From a virus, in the UHGV virus genome UHGV-0127437: a stretch of DNA of 51,462 bases; one strand, written 5' to 3'. Position 1 is the stretch's first letter. The number at the start of each line of letters is the position of its first letter. Under the pieces are notes generated by a model. The model saw nothing but the letters and a program-made list of their open reading frames with translations, was not told the origin of the DNA and did no database searches. Shown here in pieces: positions 29,514-48,821 of the stretch. The position numbers and the translations under genes are program-made.

Positions 29514-29617
29514 ACTGGCTCCAGAAACGACAAAGCCCCGCACGATGGCGAGGCTTTAAGTTCGTCGACAATCAAAGCTATGGCGACAATATCAGATTTA
29601 CATGAAATATAGCCGTT

Positions 29618-41685: not shown

Positions 41686-41777
41686 CTCCCCACGGAGAGC
41701 TTATGAGGCTGGGTATTGCACATAGGCCATACGAACCACCTCTGGGTAGAAAACTTAAATAAAATTTAATAGTGGGA

Positions 41778-42692
41778 ATGGTAATGGAAGCACCTTATCA
41801 ATTAGAATTCACTGAAAACATTTATTATTCAATAGGTAATAACCCCAGCATTAAAGAAATCATTGAGTCTCTTCAAGGCTGGGAAGCTATTATCAAACAA
41901 TCTAAAGGAGTCCTTGCAGAGCTAACTGGAAGTGATATCCTGGATATTGAAGTTAGGGTTCAAAAGTTAGAAGTCGGGAGCCTAACTGAAAAAATTCTTA
42001 TCAAGTTAGGTTTTGGCAACGAAGAGAATTTTGATAAATTTCTCGAAAATGCGCATGAAAGGTACATCGGAGAAGGAAAAATGCGTAGCGCCTTAGTTTG
42101 GACGGTTATAGCAGGTGTACTCGCCACGGGTATGTATTTAGCCGTCAAAAACATGGCACCCAATAATGCCTCCCACTTCGAAGCAAATAATAATATAATC
42201 ATTAACATAGGTGCTGGCGAAACTAACATTTCACCTGAAAGAATACAGTCGGTGCTCAATAGTACATTAGTTGATAAAAAAACCGCTGCCAAAGGTGCTG
42301 TCAAAATTTTATCTCCAGCGCGAAATGACGAAAATGCAACATTAATGATAGGTAGCGATAACACTTCCGTAACAATACCTTCAGATTTAATCTCTAAAAC
42401 ACCAACCGAGGTTAGTTTTGAAGCTGATACATATACTCGAGACCATTACGATGTTGACCTTGAGATAAGAGCTCTTGATCTCGACAATCCGACAAAGGGA
42501 TGGGCTGCCGTGATTCCTGGCTTAGTTGATCGAAGGGTAAAACTAGTTTTGGCACCCGGGATTAAACCAGAAGACCTATCCCATAAATTCGCCTTCCGCG
42601 CTGATGTAACCATTACTTATAAACTTACGTCATCTAAAGGCGAAGCATACAAGCCAACAGAAATATTTTTAAGCAAATTAATCGCGGAATGA
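41778..42692 (+). CDS. Hypothetical single-TM protein downstream of repressor (rexAB-position cargo; candidate exclusion/abortive-infection gene)
   Basis: ~305-aa AT-rich ORF co-oriented with cI, one central hydrophobic helix (LVWTVIAGVLATGMYLAV), followed by strong terminator. Confidence 0.5.
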   Translation: MVMEAPYQLEFTENIYYSIGNNPSIKEIIESLQGWEAIIKQSKGVLAELTGSDILDIEVRVQKLEVGSLTEKILIKLGFGNEENFDKFLENAHERYIGEGKMRSALVWTVIAGVLATGMYLAVKNMAPNNASHFEANNNIIINIGAGETNISPERIQSVLNSTLVDKKTAAKGAVKILSPARNDENATLMIGSDNTSVTIPSDLISKTPTEVSFEADTYTRDHYDVDLEIRALDLDNPTKGWAAVIPGLVDRRVKLVLAPGIKPEDLSHKFAFRADVTITYKLTSSKGEAYKPTEIFLSKLIAE

Positions 42693-42696
42693 AATT

Positions 42697-42722
42697 AACC
42701 CGGCCACCGCGCCGGGTTTTTA
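42697..42722 (+). terminator. Rho-independent terminator ending immunity-region transcript
   Basis: Stem cccggc/gccggg, 6-nt loop, T5 run immediately after stop codon of 306-aa gene. Confidence 0.7.
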
Positions 42723-43037
42723 TTGCCCTTTCCTCACAAACTCCGCAGCATCCCTCTTTGCGCCCTTGACTGTTTAGCAGCTATACACGCTACATCTACT
42801 TAATCAGGCTATCCTTGTTGATATATGATGCAAATAATCAGTTGGGAAATAATAAGAGAGTATCTGATAGTATGCCTGGTAACTGTTGTTATGGTCGCCG
42901 CGATTTCACTGGTTATGCTGGCCTGGTGAATTTTGCAGGGGTCTTTTCCCTGAAACATGCGCGACAACACACTCTGGTAAGACAAGCTCTGTTATGGTGC
43001 ATGAACAAGAAATAACAGCACCATATATCCGACTTAC

Positions 43038-43072
43038 AGCCCGGATTACGACACGTTCCGGGCTTTTTTTTT
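43038..43072 (+). terminator. Strong rho-independent terminator
   Basis: Stem gcccgga/tccgggc with 11-nt loop followed by T9. Confidence 0.75.
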
Positions 43073-43075
43073 GCC

Positions 43076-43285
43076 CTATTCTTCCAGCAACTTCACCGCC
43101 AGTTCCATCGCCTGAATCTGGTCAGCATCCCACTTATCCAGCCCCTTCGATATCTCCGTTCGTATCACGTCAGCTATAGCCACTCTTTTGGTTTCATGCC
43201 CTTCAGCCACCATCGCAAACACAACATCACCCACAATCCGGCACATTTCCTGATAGCGCAACTGCGCCAGTTCCTCGTAATCCAT
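43076..43285 (-). CDS. Hypothetical small acidic protein
   Basis: 69-aa ORF from ATG at 43285 with GAGGG RBS (track start is GTG at 43327). Confidence 0.4.
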   Translation of the reverse strand: MDYEELAQLRYQEMCRIVGDVVFAMVAEGHETKRVAIADVIRTEISKGLDKWDADQIQAMELAVKLLEE

Positions 43286-43558
43286 CACTAACCCTCGGCA
43301 ATTGATGTTTTTGTGAGCATAACACACGCTCCCTCTCCCAACATATAAACCTAAAATTTACACCAAACATTAATTGAAAGTTGACACAACTATAAACCAG
43401 TGATTTAATCAATATCACAGCAACACGACCACCCAGGCAGGACGCCCACGAAGTAGCCGTCCGGGGCATACGAAGACCGGAATGAGGTGGATGAGTTAAC
43501 GCGCAGCAGGTATCAAACGTTCCGCCAGCCGGGCGACAACGGCAAGCAGAGGGTGAAA

Positions 43559-43831
43559 ATGAAAATTGATTTAGATCTCAAGGCGCAGGGAGTTGACGTT
43601 TCAACCAGCGGTTATCGCGATTTTGTTAACGCCGAAATTCGCGGCGTTGAAGTGGATGATGTGCTGGAAGAAATCGAAAGCGATGTACTGTTCGCTGCCA
43701 TCGACCTGCCGGATTACATCGACTGGGCTGACAACAACAGCAAGTTACCGGAAATTCTGGATCGTCTTTCTCCTGACGAGGTCATTAGCTGGCTTCGCGA
43801 TAACGGGCATCTGGAGGATAACGATGATTAA
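43559..43831 (+). CDS. Hypothetical acidic protein, first gene of early-left operon
   Basis: ATG at 43559 with GAGGGTG RBS (track start is GTG at 43487). Confidence 0.45.
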   Translation: MKIDLDLKAQGVDVSTSGYRDFVNAEIRGVEVDDVLEEIESDVLFAAIDLPDYIDWADNNSKLPEILDRLSPDEVISWLRDNGHLEDNDD

Positions 43832-43951
43832 CCAGCAGCAAGTCCGGGAGGCTCAACGCCTTGCATGGTTCGCCGTTCGGCATCGCAATATCCAGGTATG
43901 GGAAGAAGCCAAACGTATTTACGCACTTGCTATCGGGAGGACTCTTCACTG

Positions 43952-44137
43952 ATGGAGACGCTATTCGCACTGGTATTAACGGTCGCAATGACCAACGGTG
44001 ACTTTCAGGATGTGATTCTCGGTGTATATGACAACCAGCAGGAATGCCAGGCCGCAGCTGTCGAGCAAAAGGTTAATGGTGAGTGCTGGCCTGTTGAGGG
44101 AATTATTCGCAACGGAGAGCTGCCAGCAAGCATCTGA
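43952..44137 (+). CDS. Hypothetical small protein with hydrophobic N-terminus
   Basis: 61-aa ORF from in-frame ATG at 43952 overlapping upstream small ORF stop. Confidence 0.35.
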   Translation: METLFALVLTVAMTNGDFQDVILGVYDNQQECQAAAVEQKVNGECWPVEGIIRNGELPASI

Positions 44138-44146
44138 GGAGGGGTA

Positions 44147-44305
44147 ATGCAGAAAGAATGCGGTTACTGCCGCAAACCCGTTGAAGAAGGCAAAGAAGTA
44201 AAGAGCATCCTTTTCTATCGCAATGGCAACCGGCTTGCCAACAAAGAAAAAGAATACTGCTCAAAGCAATGCGCTGAATACGATCAGATGGCGCACGAAA
44301 GTTAA
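44147..44305 (+). CDS. Hypothetical 52-aa Cys-rich (zinc-ribbon-like) protein
   Basis: ATG preceded by GAGGAGGGG RBS; CGYC...CSKQC pattern; below the track length cutoff, translated by hand. Confidence 0.35.
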   Translation: MQKECGYCRKPVEEGKEVKSILFYRNGNRLANKEKEYCSKQCAEYDQMAHES

Positions 44306-44392
44306 CCAGCAGTCCTGAAATATGAAACAAAAAATTCGCCATTAATTTGGCGCGGCTTCTTACACCCTGAATTTAACAACCGGAGAAGTTTT

Positions 44393-44680
44393 ATGGAAAT
44401 CGTAAAAATCGAAATGAACCTGAAAGCAGTGAATAAAGAATTGGCTGTATTCAACTGCGAGAAGAAAGTATCAGGCGTTATTCATTCAGCCGAAACGGGC
44501 GCGGTCACGGTCATTCTTGACGGTGGCTATGTATTCGGCAAGTTCGACTGTCCTCTTTGTGCTGTAGAGGCAATTTCAATGCTGTCCGTAAAAGTAAGTG
44601 ATGGCGATAACGCCGGGTTTGGCAACTACCGCAGCTACAAACTCGATTACTCAGAAAAGGTTTTCAGCACCGTTCATTAA
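44393..44680 (+). CDS. Hypothetical protein
   Basis: 95-aa ORF, ATG start, early-left operon. Confidence 0.4.
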   Translation: MEIVKIEMNLKAVNKELAVFNCEKKVSGVIHSAETGAVTVILDGGYVFGKFDCPLCAVEAISMLSVKVSDGDNAGFGNYRSYKLDYSEKVFSTVH

Positions 44681-44807
44681 GCAAAAGCCCACACGAAGTG
44701 GGCCTGCCCGTCCGGCGTCACCGACCAAAGCGAACCGGACATTTCTACCTGGTAAAACCGAGGTGCCATTAAGGCGCCTCCATTCTACACGAATTGAGGA
44801 TAAAATA

Positions 44808-47720
44808 ATGAGTGGAACTAATCCTGTATTTTTAGTCCGCAAAGCAAAGAAATCATCAGGCCAGAAAGATGCAGTTCTCTGGTGCAGCGATGATCTTGAA
44901 GCGGCAAATGCCACACTGGATTATCTCCTGATTAAATCCGGCGCAAAGCTGAAAGATTATTTTAAAGCTGTTGCCACTAATTTCCCCGTCGTTAACGAGC
45001 TTCCGCCAGAAGGCGAACTCAGCTTAACGTTCTGCGATTTCTACCAGCTTGGAAGCGACAACATGACCTGGGCGCAGATCCCCGGTGTTACGTTGCCCTC
45101 TTCTGATGCTGCCGCCGAAGCACGTCAGCATATCGTTAACGGTGTTGATACCGAAACAGGTGAAGTGCTGGAAGATCACACAGAAGAAGTTGTTGATACC
45201 GAAACTGGCGAAATTACCCAGCACGAACAGCCGTCAACTGAAGACAATGGCGATCGACCTGAACACCCTCAGTTAACTGTTGTGGCAACGATGCCCTTCC
45301 GTCATCGCGTTCTGGCTCAACATATTGGCGATGGCGAGTATCTCTATCATGTCGATGAAGAGCAGAAAAAAGCAATTCTCGCTCTGGAAATGGACACTGA
45401 TAACTCATATGTCCAGAACCTTTTACTTGCGTCTGAGAATGTTGAACCATTCAAAAAGGCCATTGAACACGATATCCATAAAGCGGTAAATGCTGTTAAG
45501 AACGTGTTTCCTGCCGATGGCAAAATCCCTGAGCTGGCAAGCGTTATCCAGTTTCTGAAAACATGGTTCGATACCCCTCATATTGATCGCGGGCTGCTCG
45601 TTAAAGAGTGGTGCAAAGGTAATCGTGTATCAGCTATTCAGCGTACTGAAAGCGGCGCGAACGCTGGCGGCGGAATTGCATCCGATCGCAAAATGCCCCA
45701 GACCACTCTCGGTCTTGAATTTGAAATAGCCTTAGGCCTGCTGGCGCGTCAGTATGAATTTGATATTTATTCTCTGCCATTGCAGATCGAACTAAAGGCT
45801 AATTCAATCATGAACGCAGTTGACGACCCTGAGTGGCTGGCAACGCGCGAACTGTTCGTGTCAATGCCTGGTGGTCTGGACTATTCCCGCGCATGCATCG
45901 TTGCAACGGTAAAAACCACACCAGATGAACTGTACAAATCCCCATTTCGCCACCGCGAGTACCTGAATAAGGTGCTGACAGAAACTGACCATGCCAATCC
46001 CGATCCGCTTGTCGTTGATATTGCCTGCGGACGTTCGTCCATGCCTATGCCAACGCCAGTAAGACAGGATGAACCATCCGTTGAAGAAGTAAACCGACAA
46101 CTCGCAGCTGCGCGCGGTGATTACGTTGAAGGTATCAGTGACCCTAACGATCCGAAGTGGGTTCATGAAGACTACAACGCCGCCTCAAATGAGGGAGAAA
46201 AAACGGAAAATGAGGACGTCGCCGATGTGCAGGTTCAAGAAACTGACGGTAATGAAGAACAGGCTGGTGATGCGCTGCGTACAAGCGAAAGCGATCTGGG
46301 GAATGGTGAAGAAGCAGATACCGGCGAACAAGCCGATGTAGACCACAATCAACCGGAAGTGAGCCAGAACAACGATTCTGCAAGCCATTCTGAGCCAGAA
46401 GCGCAACAGGAAGAACCAATGCCAGTGTGGCCGGAATACTTCGAGCCGGGGCGTTATGAAGGCGTACCGAACGAGGTATATCACGCGGCGAATGGCACCA
46501 GTTCGACGATGGTAAAAGATGCCCGGGTATCGCTGATGTATTTCGAGGCGCGCCACGTATCCAAAACCATCCAGAAAGAACGCACCAAAGTCCTGGATAT
46601 GGGGAATCTGGTGCACGCGCTGGCATTACAGCCTGAACAACTGGAAAAAGAGTTCAGCATCGAGCCGGAAATCCCGGAAGGTGCGCTCACGACGACAGCG
46701 ACGATCCGCGCGGTTATCGACGAACACAACGCCAGCCTGCCGGCATTACTCACCGCAGACGATATCAAAGCGTTGCTGGAAGAATACAACGCCACCCTGC
46801 CCGCGCCATTACCGCTTGGGGCATCCGTTGACGAAGCGTATGCGTCATATGAGCAACTCCCGGAAGAGTTCCAGCGCATCGAAAACGGGACTAAGCATAC
46901 AGCAGCGGCAATGAAGGCCTGCATCAAAGAATACAACGCCACCCTGCCGCCGCAGGTGAAAACCAGCGGAAGCCGTGACGCGCTGCTTGAGCAACTGGCG
47001 ATCATCAACCCTGACCTGGTCGCACAGGAAGCACAGAAGCCACAGCCGTTGAAAGTATCCGGCACCAAAGCGGATCTGATTCAGGCAGTGAAATCCGTCA
47101 AACCTGAAACAGTGTTTGCCGACGAGCTGCTTGACGCATGGCGCGAAAACCCCGGCGATAAAATTCTGGTTACCCGCCAGCAGTTGAGCACCGCGCAGGC
47201 CATCCAGAAAGCGCTGCTGAATCACCCGACCGCCGGGAAGCTGCTGACGCATCCGAACCGCGCCGTAGAGGTGAGCTATTTCGGTATTGATGAGGAAACC
47301 GGGCTGGAAATCCGCGTGCGCCCAGACCTTGAAATCGACATGGGCGGCCTGCGCATCGGTGCGGACCTGAAAACCATCAGCATGTGGAATATCAAGCAGG
47401 AAGGCCTGCGCGCCAAACTGCACCGGGAAATCATCGAGCGCGATTATCACCTGAGCGCTGCCATGTACTGCGAAACCGCAGCGCTGGACCAGTTTTTCTG
47501 GATATTCGTCAACAAAGACGAGAACTACCACTGGATCGCCATCGTCGAGGTATCCGAAGAGTTGCTGGAACTCGGCATGCTGGAATACCGCAAAGCAATG
47601 CGCGCCATAGCGAACGGGTTCGACACTGGCGAATGGCCAGCGCCGATTACCGAAGATTACGCCGAAGAACTCAACGATTTTGATGTGCGCCGCCTTGAAG
47701 CGCTGCGCGTACAGGCATAA
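44808..47720 (+). CDS. RecE-like exonuclease VIII (large early recombination protein)
   Basis: ~970-aa ORF from ATG at 44808 with GAGGA RBS, immediately upstream of RecT-like gene as in Rac recET; contains internal EYNATLP repeats. Confidence 0.55.
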   Translation: MSGTNPVFLVRKAKKSSGQKDAVLWCSDDLEAANATLDYLLIKSGAKLKDYFKAVATNFPVVNELPPEGELSLTFCDFYQLGSDNMTWAQIPGVTLPSSDAAAEARQHIVNGVDTETGEVLEDHTEEVVDTETGEITQHEQPSTEDNGDRPEHPQLTVVATMPFRHRVLAQHIGDGEYLYHVDEEQKKAILALEMDTDNSYVQNLLLASENVEPFKKAIEHDIHKAVNAVKNVFPADGKIPELASVIQFLKTWFDTPHIDRGLLVKEWCKGNRVSAIQRTESGANAGGGIASDRKMPQTTLGLEFEIALGLLARQYEFDIYSLPLQIELKANSIMNAVDDPEWLATRELFVSMPGGLDYSRACIVATVKTTPDELYKSPFRHREYLNKVLTETDHANPDPLVVDIACGRSSMPMPTPVRQDEPSVEEVNRQLAAARGDYVEGISDPNDPKWVHEDYNAASNEGEKTENEDVADVQVQETDGNEEQAGDALRTSESDLGNGEEADTGEQADVDHNQPEVSQNNDSASHSEPEAQQEEPMPVWPEYFEPGRYEGVPNEVYHAANGTSSTMVKDARVSLMYFEARHVSKTIQKERTKVLDMGNLVHALALQPEQLEKEFSIEPEIPEGALTTTATIRAVIDEHNASLPALLTADDIKALLEEYNATLPAPLPLGASVDEAYASYEQLPEEFQRIENGTKHTAAAMKACIKEYNATLPPQVKTSGSRDALLEQLAIINPDLVAQEAQKPQPLKVSGTKADLIQAVKSVKPETVFADELLDAWRENPGDKILVTRQQLSTAQAIQKALLNHPTAGKLLTHPNRAVEVSYFGIDEETGLEIRVRPDLEIDMGGLRIGADLKTISMWNIKQEGLRAKLHREIIERDYHLSAAMYCETAALDQFFWIFVNKDENYHWIAIVEVSEELLELGMLEYRKAMRAIANGFDTGEWPAPITEDYAEELNDFDVRRLEALRVQA

Positions 47721-47732
47721 GGGGGAATAACA

Positions 47733-48821
47733 ATGTCCAATTTAGTCGCCACCACTGAAAACCAAACTCAGAAAATCGACAACGTTTCTATCCTGACGAA
47801 CGGGGAACTGTTCAACCGCCTGCGCACGCTTTCGGAGGTAATGGCCAACAGTGGAAACTTCGTCCCAGATCATTACCGGGGGAAACCGGACGCCTGCATG
47901 GCTGTTGTGATGCAGGCTGCGCGCTGGGGCATGGATCCTTTCGCTGTAGCGCAAAAGACTTTCATCGTCGGGAATTCCGGTGTGCTTGGTTATGAAGCGC
48001 AGCTGGTTAATGCGGTGATCAACACTATGGCCCCCACTAAGGATCGTATCCACTTTGAATGGTTCGGCGAATGGGAAAATATCGTTGGACGGTTCGTGGA
48101 GAAGACAAGCAGCCAGAATAAAAAGTACATCGCGCCGGGCTGGAATTTGAAAGACGAAGCTGGCGTGGGCGTTCGCGCCTGGGCAACGCTTAAAGGTGAA
48201 TCTGAACCGCGCGAGCTGGTCCTGATGCTTTCGCAAGCACAGGTACGCAATTCAACATTGTGGGCAACCGACCCACGCCAGCAGTTAGCCTATCTCGCCG
48301 TTAAACGTTGGGCGCGTCTCTACTGCCCCGACGTGATTCTCGGGGTTTATACCGCCGATGAGATTGACGAGCGTGAGGAGAAGGTAATCAACCCCTCGTC
48401 TGTTGAAAGGGTCACCATTGATGAGATTGCCAGCAGTGCGCGCACGACAGCCAGCGCGCAGGAATCAACTAAAAACATCGATCAGTTAGCCGACGATCTG
48501 CGTGACCGCATTGAAAAAGCAATGACGGTCGACCAGGCAAGCGCTATCCGCGGTGAAATCGAGACCGAAAAACCAATACTTGGCACAGCTCTATACACGG
48601 AACTGAAAAATAAGGCCGTTCGTCGTTATTACCTGGTCGATCACCGCAACCGGGTGGAAGCGGCTATCAATGCCCTGCCTAACCCGGGCGAACCAGAAGC
48701 GGCAGAACTGTTTGCTAAAGCTGAAGGCGTTCTCAATGCCGCCAAACGTCACTTGGGCGATGAACTGTACGACCAGTTCCGCATCACCCTGGACGACATG
48801 AAACCGGAATACGTGGGCTAA
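47733..48821 (+). CDS. RecT/Redbeta-family single-strand annealing protein
   Basis: 362-aa ORF; conserved-core-like segment AVVMQAARWGMDPFAVAQKTFIVG...GYEAQLVNAVIN similar in pattern to Bet/RecT core as recalled; position after exonuclease gene. Confidence 0.6.
   Translation: MSNLVATTENQTQKIDNVSILTNGELFNRLRTLSEVMANSGNFVPDHYRGKPDACMAVVMQAARWGMDPFAVAQKTFIVGNSGVLGYEAQLVNAVINTMAPTKDRIHFEWFGEWENIVGRFVEKTSSQNKKYIAPGWNLKDEAGVGVRAWATLKGESEPRELVLMLSQAQVRNSTLWATDPRQQLAYLAVKRWARLYCPDVILGVYTADEIDEREEKVINPSSVERVTIDEIASSARTTASAQESTKNIDQLADDLRDRIEKAMTVDQASAIRGEIETEKPILGTALYTELKNKAVRRYYLVDHRNRVEAAINALPNPGEPEAAELFAKAEGVLNAAKRHLGDELYDQFRITLDDMKPEYVG

Follow-up and report, generated by a model that had tools for sequence, protein, structure and literature searches.

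Five short open-reading frames (ORFs) at positions 43559–44680 of virus genome UHGV-0127437 (51,462 nucleotides (nt), the whole of which we refer to as the window) are real, conserved phage accessory genes under purifying selection. Two belong to curated protein families, one is probably a lambda Kil family protein that has diverged, and two fall in families defined only in PHROG. As a lambdoid accessory segment the cluster is ordinary, being a mosaic of conserved genes, and on balance we favour the view that these five mosaic protein genes stand at the front of the early-left operon in a lambdoid prophage of Gifsy-1/Rac type, as its accessory part. A first-pass annotation, made from the sequence alone, had described five ORFs in front of a recE-like gene, of which ORF1 was acidic, ORF3 had a hydrophobic N-terminus and ORF4 was a Cys-rich, zinc-ribbon-like protein with a very strong ribosome-binding site (RBS). 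All five are present as described, on the plus strand: ORF1 is strongly acidic (isoelectric point, pI 4.05), ORF3 carries TLFALVLTVAM near its start, ORF4 shows a CxxC...CxxxC arrangement behind GAGGAGG, and the genes are small early-left operon genes directly 5′ of recE and recT in a lambdoid, Gifsy-1/Rac-like prophage. The statement that none of them matches a recognisable family had to be abandoned, as ORF3 is Pfam DUF1482, ORF4 is NCBIfam YdaE, and ORF1, ORF3, ORF4 and ORF5 all match PHROG families (e-values 1e-28 to 1e-49). Kil-, CIII-, Gam- or Ral-type content had also been anticipated, and here only the first part stood: a Kil-type gene is probable (ORF2), whilst lambda CIII, Gam, Ral and Ea10, which occupy the same general early-left region, showed no similarity to any of the five ORFs in Pfam and BLAST comparisons, a method by which Gam was readily detectable at other loci.

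The five genes are tightly packed on the plus strand. ORF1 (43559–43831, RBS GAGGGTG) encodes a 90-amino acid acidic protein (phrog_7311); ORF2 (43824–43952) a 42-amino acid basic protein (pI 11.3) which is the diverged lambda Kil family candidate; ORF3 (43952–44137) a 61-amino acid DUF1482 protein, hydrophobic at its N-terminus and carrying two conserved Cys residues; ORF4 (44147–44305, RBS GAGGAGG 5 nt upstream) a 52-amino acid YdaE-family Cys4 zinc-ribbon protein; and ORF5 (44393–44680) a 95-amino acid STM2631-family protein in the slot held by RacC in the Rac prophage. The ATG of ORF2 lies inside the end of ORF1 in an 8-nt overlap (ATGATTAA) and the ATG of ORF3 shares TGATG with the stop of ORF2, there is therefore zero non-coding space among the first three genes. 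Pairwise comparison with diverged homologous loci gave ratios of non-synonymous to synonymous substitution (dN/dS) of 0.04–0.26 across all five ORFs, with synonymous sites often saturated: 0.08 for ORF1, 0.04–0.10 for ORF2 and about 0.05 for ORF3 (synonymous divergence being saturated in the latter two), 0.09–0.26 for ORF4 and 0.14–0.23 for ORF5. For each ORF there are homologues that extend over its full length and keep that length at identities as low as 40–50%, all from Enterobacterales (Citrobacter, Salmonella, Enterobacter, Kluyvera, Pectobacterium, Dickeya and Brenneria). Sequence and profile searches of the PDB with ORF1 to ORF5 returned no significant match to a solved structure.

The recombination genes place the cluster among known prophages. 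The recE gene (44808–47720, plus strand, 970 amino acids from the ATG at 44808) and recT (47733–48821, plus strand, from the ORF list) are identified by Pfam Exonuc_VIII and RecT matches on identical genes in sister loci, and by the annotations of Gifsy-1, HK225 and Rac. From ORF4 onward the DNA shares 80–84% identity with Gifsy-1, Gifsy-2, SPN3UB, HK225 and a set of E. coli prophages, and these records share with Rac of E. coli K-12 the order small gene, ydaE, a gene of about 90 codons, recE, recT. The window resembles Rac (kilR-ydaE-racC-recE-recT) in having a putative host-killing small gene followed by ydaE, a gene for a protein of about 90 amino acids, recE and recT, and ORF4 is a true YdaE homologue (44% identity). 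It differs in that a Kil-like 42-amino acid gene and DUF1482, dissimilar to KilR, stand where Rac has KilR, in that no relationship of ORF5 to RacC could be demonstrated, the two having only position in common, and in that ORF1 is without a Rac counterpart. The likeness extends to Gifsy-1 (STM2630.1n-STM2630-STM2631-sbcA(recE)) and HK225 (gp37-gp36-gp35-exonuclease), where ORF4 shares 75–83% and ORF5 69–81% identity and where the antisense small RNA (sRNA) IsrB sits in the same spacer before recE. However, both lack ORF1, ORF2 and DUF1482; 5′ of ydaE, Gifsy-1 has a 38-amino acid gene and HK225 a KilR-type gene. The immunity region of the window has a helix-turn-helix repressor on the same strand, with ydaS/ydaT-type genes opposite.

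Further mosaicism was evident in 19 genome loci collected by an ORF3 search. The start of DUF1482 was overlapped by the stop of a small upstream ORF in 18 of them, and this upstream partner took four forms unrelated to one another: an ORF2-like protein (type A, three loci), a 67-amino acid phrog_3722 protein (ten loci), a 93-amino acid protein (type C, four loci) which matches Pfam Lambda_Kil at 33 bits, above the 27.6 cut-off, and a 38-amino acid protein like Gifsy-1 STM2630.1n (one locus). The gene after DUF1482 was YdaE, RecE directly, or Gam, and one otherwise identical Citrobacter locus has a different gene in the place of ORF1. With swapped partners, a swapped ORF1 and varied followers, the five genes are therefore cassettes that assort independently of one another. 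Such independent assortment is usual for lambdoid early-left regions.

The linkage of YdaE to RecE proved strict. ORF4 matches NCBIfam NF041288 (YdaE) at 96.2 bits against a cut-off of 35, over profile positions 1–50 of 50, a gene identical to it is tagged PF27493:YdaE in sister loci, and RefSeq labels its Rac relative (b4526) ‘zinc-binding protein’, an annotation from which we take it that ORF4 would bind zinc. In an alignment of eight YdaE sequences, C5, C8, C38, C42 and a C-terminal DQMAHE were invariant; across 17 distinct ORF4 homologues the four Cys residues were again invariant and DQMAHE nearly so (three HQMANE, one DQMAHD). PDB searches gave a faint, non-significant resemblance to eL24/TRASH-like zinc ribbons. 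Taking the best 80 of 485 YdaE matches, 71 of which had enough downstream sequence, in 71 of 71 loci a RecE start lay no more than 900 nt 3′ of YdaE, whether or not an ORF5-type gene intervened, and RecE also followed in every other locus examined that contained YdaE. This linkage makes YdaE and, less strictly, ORF5 candidate accessory factors of RecET, which we consider their most likely role, and gives RecET recombineering a concrete candidate, YdaE, to try as an accessory factor. One caution is that the sample consists of the closest relatives, and distant YdaE proteins may differ.

ORF5 belongs to phrog_2434 and to the STM2631 family of Gifsy-1 (81% identity), and is without a Pfam domain. 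The exact protein occurs in 868 assembly-collection blocks with the same gene order. The family is a small one (53 representative clusters out of 1.84 billion proteins), and the fold predicted for ORF5 combines two helices with a five-strand meander. Homologues are named ‘DNA breaking-rejoining protein’ by the Prokaryotic Genome Annotation Pipeline (PGAP), a name we found to be unsupported, as there is neither a recombinase domain nor a match to a recombinase-like fold, and which appears to be legacy text. Homology of ORF5 to RacC (phrog_4778) was also rejected: in single-sequence and wide-profile tests with shuffled controls, hhalign gave a probability of 0.2–1% and the hidden Markov model (HMM) a P of ~0.03, within the range of the shuffled controls. 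A possible zinc site (C22/C53/C56/H31/H95) was dropped because distant family members are without these residues. In the spacer between ORF4 and ORF5, a hairpin at 44337–44352 (CGCCATTAATTTGGCG) scores as terminator-like on the minus strand, where it is followed by AATTTTTTGT, and the plus strand continues with a weak CTTCTT. The hairpin may serve to terminate a transcript running antisense through ORF5, or to reduce the read-through that reaches ORF5 and recE.

The 127-nt spacer from the ORF5 stop to the recE start contains, on the minus strand at 44682–44770, the Hfq-binding sRNA IsrB (Rfam RF01386, 99.9 bits, gathering score 35), antisense and with its terminator abutting the ORF5 stop codon. 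The same arrangement was described by Padalon-Brauch et al. (2008), who in Salmonella mapped the starvation-induced isrB-2 between STM2631 and sbcA in the orientation -> <- -> (PMC2330248). IsrB may act on the 5′ untranslated region of recE. The ORF list stretches recE upstream to a GTG at 44598 (44598–44807, giving 1040 amino acids), overlapping both ORF5 and the IsrB region; this extension is probably not real, and sister loci have the 970-amino acid RecE from the ATG at 44808, with a GAGGA ribosome-binding site.

At the other end of the cluster, ORF1 contains 25 Asp and Glu residues against seven Lys and Arg, which makes 28% of its residues acidic. It matches phrog_7311 (e-value 2.8e-37) but no Pfam family, and a Pfam scan across the whole ORF1 family gave no consistent match. 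Its 61 homologues, from Citrobacter, Salmonella, Kluyvera, Enterobacter and E. coli, are every one named ‘hypothetical’, and share a conserved C-terminal motif, YIDWA..K..EILDRLSPDEVISWLRDNGHLE. In the loci examined ORF1 always lies in early-left operons, 5′ of recombination genes. Its distant homologues accompany RecT and a short RecE-type nuclease in further early-left operons; the flanking genes of these were considered as Kil-like neighbours and found not to be so. Proteins 99% identical to ORF1 and ORF5 carry Citrobacter koseri as their source name.

The composition of ORF1 raises the question of whether part of the cluster is directed against host defences, with ORF1 as a DNA mimic or anti-restriction protein and YdaE and/or ORF5 as a RecBCD inhibitor replacing Gam or Abc2. 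The low pI and acidic content would fit a DNA mimic, and ORF1 adjoins Kil and Gam in Salmonella. No recognisable Gam, GamL, Abc2 or MuGam is present in the window, YdaE is strictly linked to RecE, and 43 of the 246 Rec modules surveyed in lambdoid phages, a RecE-type example among them, were found to be without an anti-RecBCD gene (PMC12315714). Yet acidity alone is weak evidence, there is no usable structural model of ORF1, none of the proteins shows sequence or fold similarity to known anti-restriction or anti-RecBCD proteins, and ORF5 is missing from many RecE loci and YdaE from some. PADLOC models gave zero matches for the five ORFs and the two upstream cargo genes, though these models cover defence-system rather than anti-defence proteins and so bear on the question only indirectly. 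We regard an anti-defence role as unlikely, and for ORF1 and for YdaE/ORF5 as unsupported speculation; accessory functions alongside RecET remain our preferred reading for YdaE and ORF5.

For ORF2, the comparison of interest is with lambda Kil, a 47-amino acid inhibitor of FtsZ ring assembly which imposes a ZipA-dependent division block. The two are similar in size and share an early-left place just before the recombination genes. ORF2 alone scores weakly against phrog_2055 (‘Kil protein for bacterial septation inhibition’, e-value 0.086), but when the family was scanned member by member, phrog_2055 was the commonest match (11 of 20 members, best e-value 2.1e-5). An ORF2-family HMM matched a Salmonella 49-amino acid Kil-like protein (P 1.9e-4), and hhalign of the ORF2 family against a Kil alignment gave a P of 4.5e-4, collinear over 35 of 42 columns. 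ORF2 and the Salmonella protein share, in a weak but collinear similarity, the pattern AQ..LA...A......WE.A......AIG. Gene order points the same way. In the Salmonella prophage a protein 89% identical to ORF1 is followed by the 49-amino acid protein, with the same 8-nt overlap, and then by Gam-Bet-Exo, so that in Salmonella loci a Lambda_Kil-like gene takes the exact position of ORF2; this protein matches phrog_2055 with an e-value of 1.7e-13. Among 80 viral contigs collected by an ORF2 profile, 76 have the order ORF2, DUF1482, Gam-like, RecT-like, Exo-like, which puts ORF2 near the position of lambda kil, and across loci ORF2 and ORF3 travel as a pair before either RecET or Gam-Bet-Exo.

Several results pull the other way. 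ORF2 itself is without a match to Pfam Lambda_Kil (PF06301) and falls below its threshold, hhalign of ORF2 against lambda Kil alone was not significant, the family-level hhalign comparison carries a reported homology probability of just 33%, the Salmonella protein itself reaches only 22.5 bits against Lambda_Kil (e-value 7.6e-5), short of the 27.6 cut-off, and in the window DUF1482, not gam, comes next. The link consists of weak profile scores taken together with synteny. Weighing both sides, we judge it likely that ORF2 is homologous to the lambda Kil family, as a diverged member, in which case a Kil-family relative overlooked by curated models would now be identified. That ORF2 also has division-blocking activity, for which we lean on what is known of lambda Kil, we put at about even, and a host-takeover reading for ORF2 is reasonable. 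Neither ORF2 nor ORF3 has BLAST similarity to Rac KilR (phrog_294) or to HK225 gp37, which matches phrog_294 with an e-value of 1.7e-34.

ORF3 matches Pfam PF07358 (DUF1482) at 96.9 bits against a cut-off of 25 (e-value 6.3e-28, profile positions 1–57 of 57), and also phrog_1092. Its N-terminal TLFALVLTV and Cys pair are invariant in 57 distinct homologues; a hydrophobic start and conserved paired Cys residues suggest that the protein is directed to the envelope or is small and disulfide-bonded. Start/stop overlap marks DUF1482 as the habitual coupled partner of small Kil-type genes. It may be asked whether this amounts to a two-component module, in which DUF1482 would be no independent gene but the obligate partner of a toxic Kil-type peptide, as antidote, timer or a means of envelope or divisome targeting. 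The ORF2 stop overlaps the ORF3 start, 76 of 80 viral contigs keep the pair alongside recombination genes of another kind, and seven of the coupled small ORFs in the 18 of 19 loci described above are Kil-like (three type A, four type C). However, in ten of the 19 loci the partner of DUF1482 is the 67-amino acid phrog_3722 protein, which has no Kil similarity, whilst lambda, P22-like phages and the Salmonella locus have Kil, and Rac and HK225 have KilR, all without DUF1482; tight packing is also normal in phage operons. An obligate module of this kind seems to us improbable, somewhat more so than the anti-defence role. In a related viral contig, ~200–385 nt 3′ of its copy of the leader element described below, we also found a distant DUF1482-like protein of 60 amino acids (MSMFFALIIPVCALTGEC...) with extra Cys in its hydrophobic N-terminus, preceded by a type-D 40-amino acid gene, which suggests that the DUF1482 family is wider than the close relatives in the Pfam model.

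That the ORFs are untranslated or decaying, functionless remnants of a cryptic prophage, the outcome which the first-pass annotation had named as its refutation, is largely refuted and very improbable: some public homologues are frameshifted or truncated (for example a PGAP pseudogene in E. coli 1368KP), but all five ORFs are under strong purifying selection, frames are intact and lengths conserved across genera, ribosome-binding sites and start/stop coupling are good, and the genes are present in the viable phages HK225, Gifsy-1 and SPN3UB.

Upstream of ORF1, the window contains a candidate early-left promoter and a structured leader RNA. The candidate promoter (43381–43409, plus strand) was read from the sequence as TTGACA, a 17-nt spacer and TGaTTTAAT, an extended −10 element; the promoter scan, which demands A at −10 position 2, passed over it. 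Homologous loci have consensus sigma-70 promoters with operator palindromes about 15–25 nt before the leader element, matching the spacing in the window. There is no N-like gene between the promoter region and ORF1, and in related loci small accessory genes, not an N gene, directly follow the leader element. The leader RNA itself (43429–43490, plus strand) would form an enclosing helix P1 (43429–43433 with 43486–43490) around a hairpin P2 (43460–43464 with 43477–43481). By blastn its core is present in ~50 lambdoid phages and annotated in none, and a pattern scan of viral contigs recovered 100 distinct copies. The core AGGCAGGACGCCCACGAAGUAGC and loop GGCAUACGAAGA are near-invariant, although parts of these (ACGAAGTAGC, GGCRTAYGAAR) were set by the search pattern that gathered most of the sequences, and their conservation is partly by construction; the helices P1 and P2 were left unconstrained by that pattern.

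In an alignment of 34 leader sequences, 95.7% of cells were paired, against 71% in shuffles and 22–51% in slid controls, double changes were found in 9 of 13 pairs, and the covariation score was 0.628 against 0.185 in shuffles, with 0 of 500 shuffles reaching it. RNAalifold recovered the same P1 and P2 independently. Both helices show many compensatory changes across the ~100 distinct copies, which come from lambdoid prophages: P1 occurs as CCACC/GGUGG, ACGAA/UUCGU, UCAUC/GAUGA and GCAAA/UUUGC, and P2 as UCCGG/CCGGA, CACCA/UGGUG, CCUGG/CCAGG, CCGAC/GUCGG and others. Judged by minimum free energy, the 145-nt leader as a whole is unexceptional (z = 0.44); its support comes from covariation instead. 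A covariance model found a single copy in the window (89.5 bits) and no match in HK022, lambda, Rac, Gifsy-1 or HK225. A third hairpin (43528–43543, plus strand), seen by eye just 5′ of the ORF1 RBS, has the form GCCG-GGCGACAA-CGGC, with compensatory variants in related loci (GCUC-AGCGAUAC-GAGC, GCCU..GGGC and GCC-GGCGAUAA-GGC, also by eye).

The leader invites comparison with the put RNAs of HK022, which are cis-acting processive antiterminators (PMC9378689). Like put, it is a structured RNA of ~65 nt at the 5′ end of a pL transcript, with no N gene after it. However, put consists of two adjacent stem-loops, as opposed to an enclosing helix with an internal hairpin, putL, taken from the HK022 genome, cannot be aligned with the leader, and the single copy in the window leaves no putR-like second site. 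With no match in sequence, structure or covariance model, identity with HK022 put was rejected, as was an AgvB-type anti-sRNA, since AgvB-type RNAs lie downstream of pR′. The element is without an Rfam match, as is HK022 put, and a full-text literature search on the core sequence gave nothing relevant, though an earlier description among put-like RNAs is possible. We offer only as a hypothesis that the leader may be a cis-acting antiterminator, or some other leader regulator of the operon; it sits at the place expected for a processive antiterminator in phages without N. Being widespread in enterobacterial prophages and showing clear covariation, the leader RNA is the piece of this locus with real upside.

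Taken together, we envisage a prophage whose host is probably C. koseri and in which induction would lead to transcription from the promoter near 43381–43409, through the structured leader RNA and the five genes into recE-recT, with no N gene involved. ORF1 would provide an acidic protein directly 5′ of the Kil-type genes. ORF2, as a diverged Kil member, would most likely block host cell division via FtsZ, with ORF3 translationally coupled to it and moving with it as a pair, whilst ORF4 and ORF5 would belong with the RecET module, most likely as its accessory factors. These biochemical functions we infer; what the data establish is that the five are coding, their family membership, their gene linkage and their mosaicism. 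Certain points count against this account. Promoter use and co-transcription with recET are deduced from the DNA, the AlphaFold2 model of ORF1 is poor and unreliable (predicted local distance difference test, pLDDT, 59.6), for which reason ORF1 was left out of the fold search, and the fold search with ORF5 was uninformative. A full-text literature search returned no mention of ‘DUF1482’, and the literature search found no paper testing the function of DUF1482, YdaE, STM2631 or phrog_7311. A bolder version, in which the operon is N-independent under a new put-like leader antiterminator, ORF2 and DUF1482 form a division-takeover module, and YdaE, with or without ORF5, is a RecBCD-neutralising or RecE-regulating partner of RecET, strikes us as doubtful. 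What is gained for the ORFs is chiefly improved annotation, and the outcome will not surprise a specialist in lambdoid phages.

Two further features of the surrounding prophage were recorded. At 29532–29602 on the minus strand there is a match to IsrJ, another Gifsy-1 island sRNA (Rfam RF01393; 69.2 bits, gathering score 37), which confirms that the prophage is Gifsy-like. A variable cargo slot, flanked by the repressor gene and the early-left promoter, occupies 41772–43327 and in the window holds a 306-amino acid phrog_4506 protein on the plus strand, a bidirectional terminator (42697–42718) and a DUF2767 gene (43076–43327, minus strand). Sister Citrobacter loci with identical flanks have HipA_2 and DUF3037, or other genes, in the same place, and the slot looks like a moron or defence-type hotspot.

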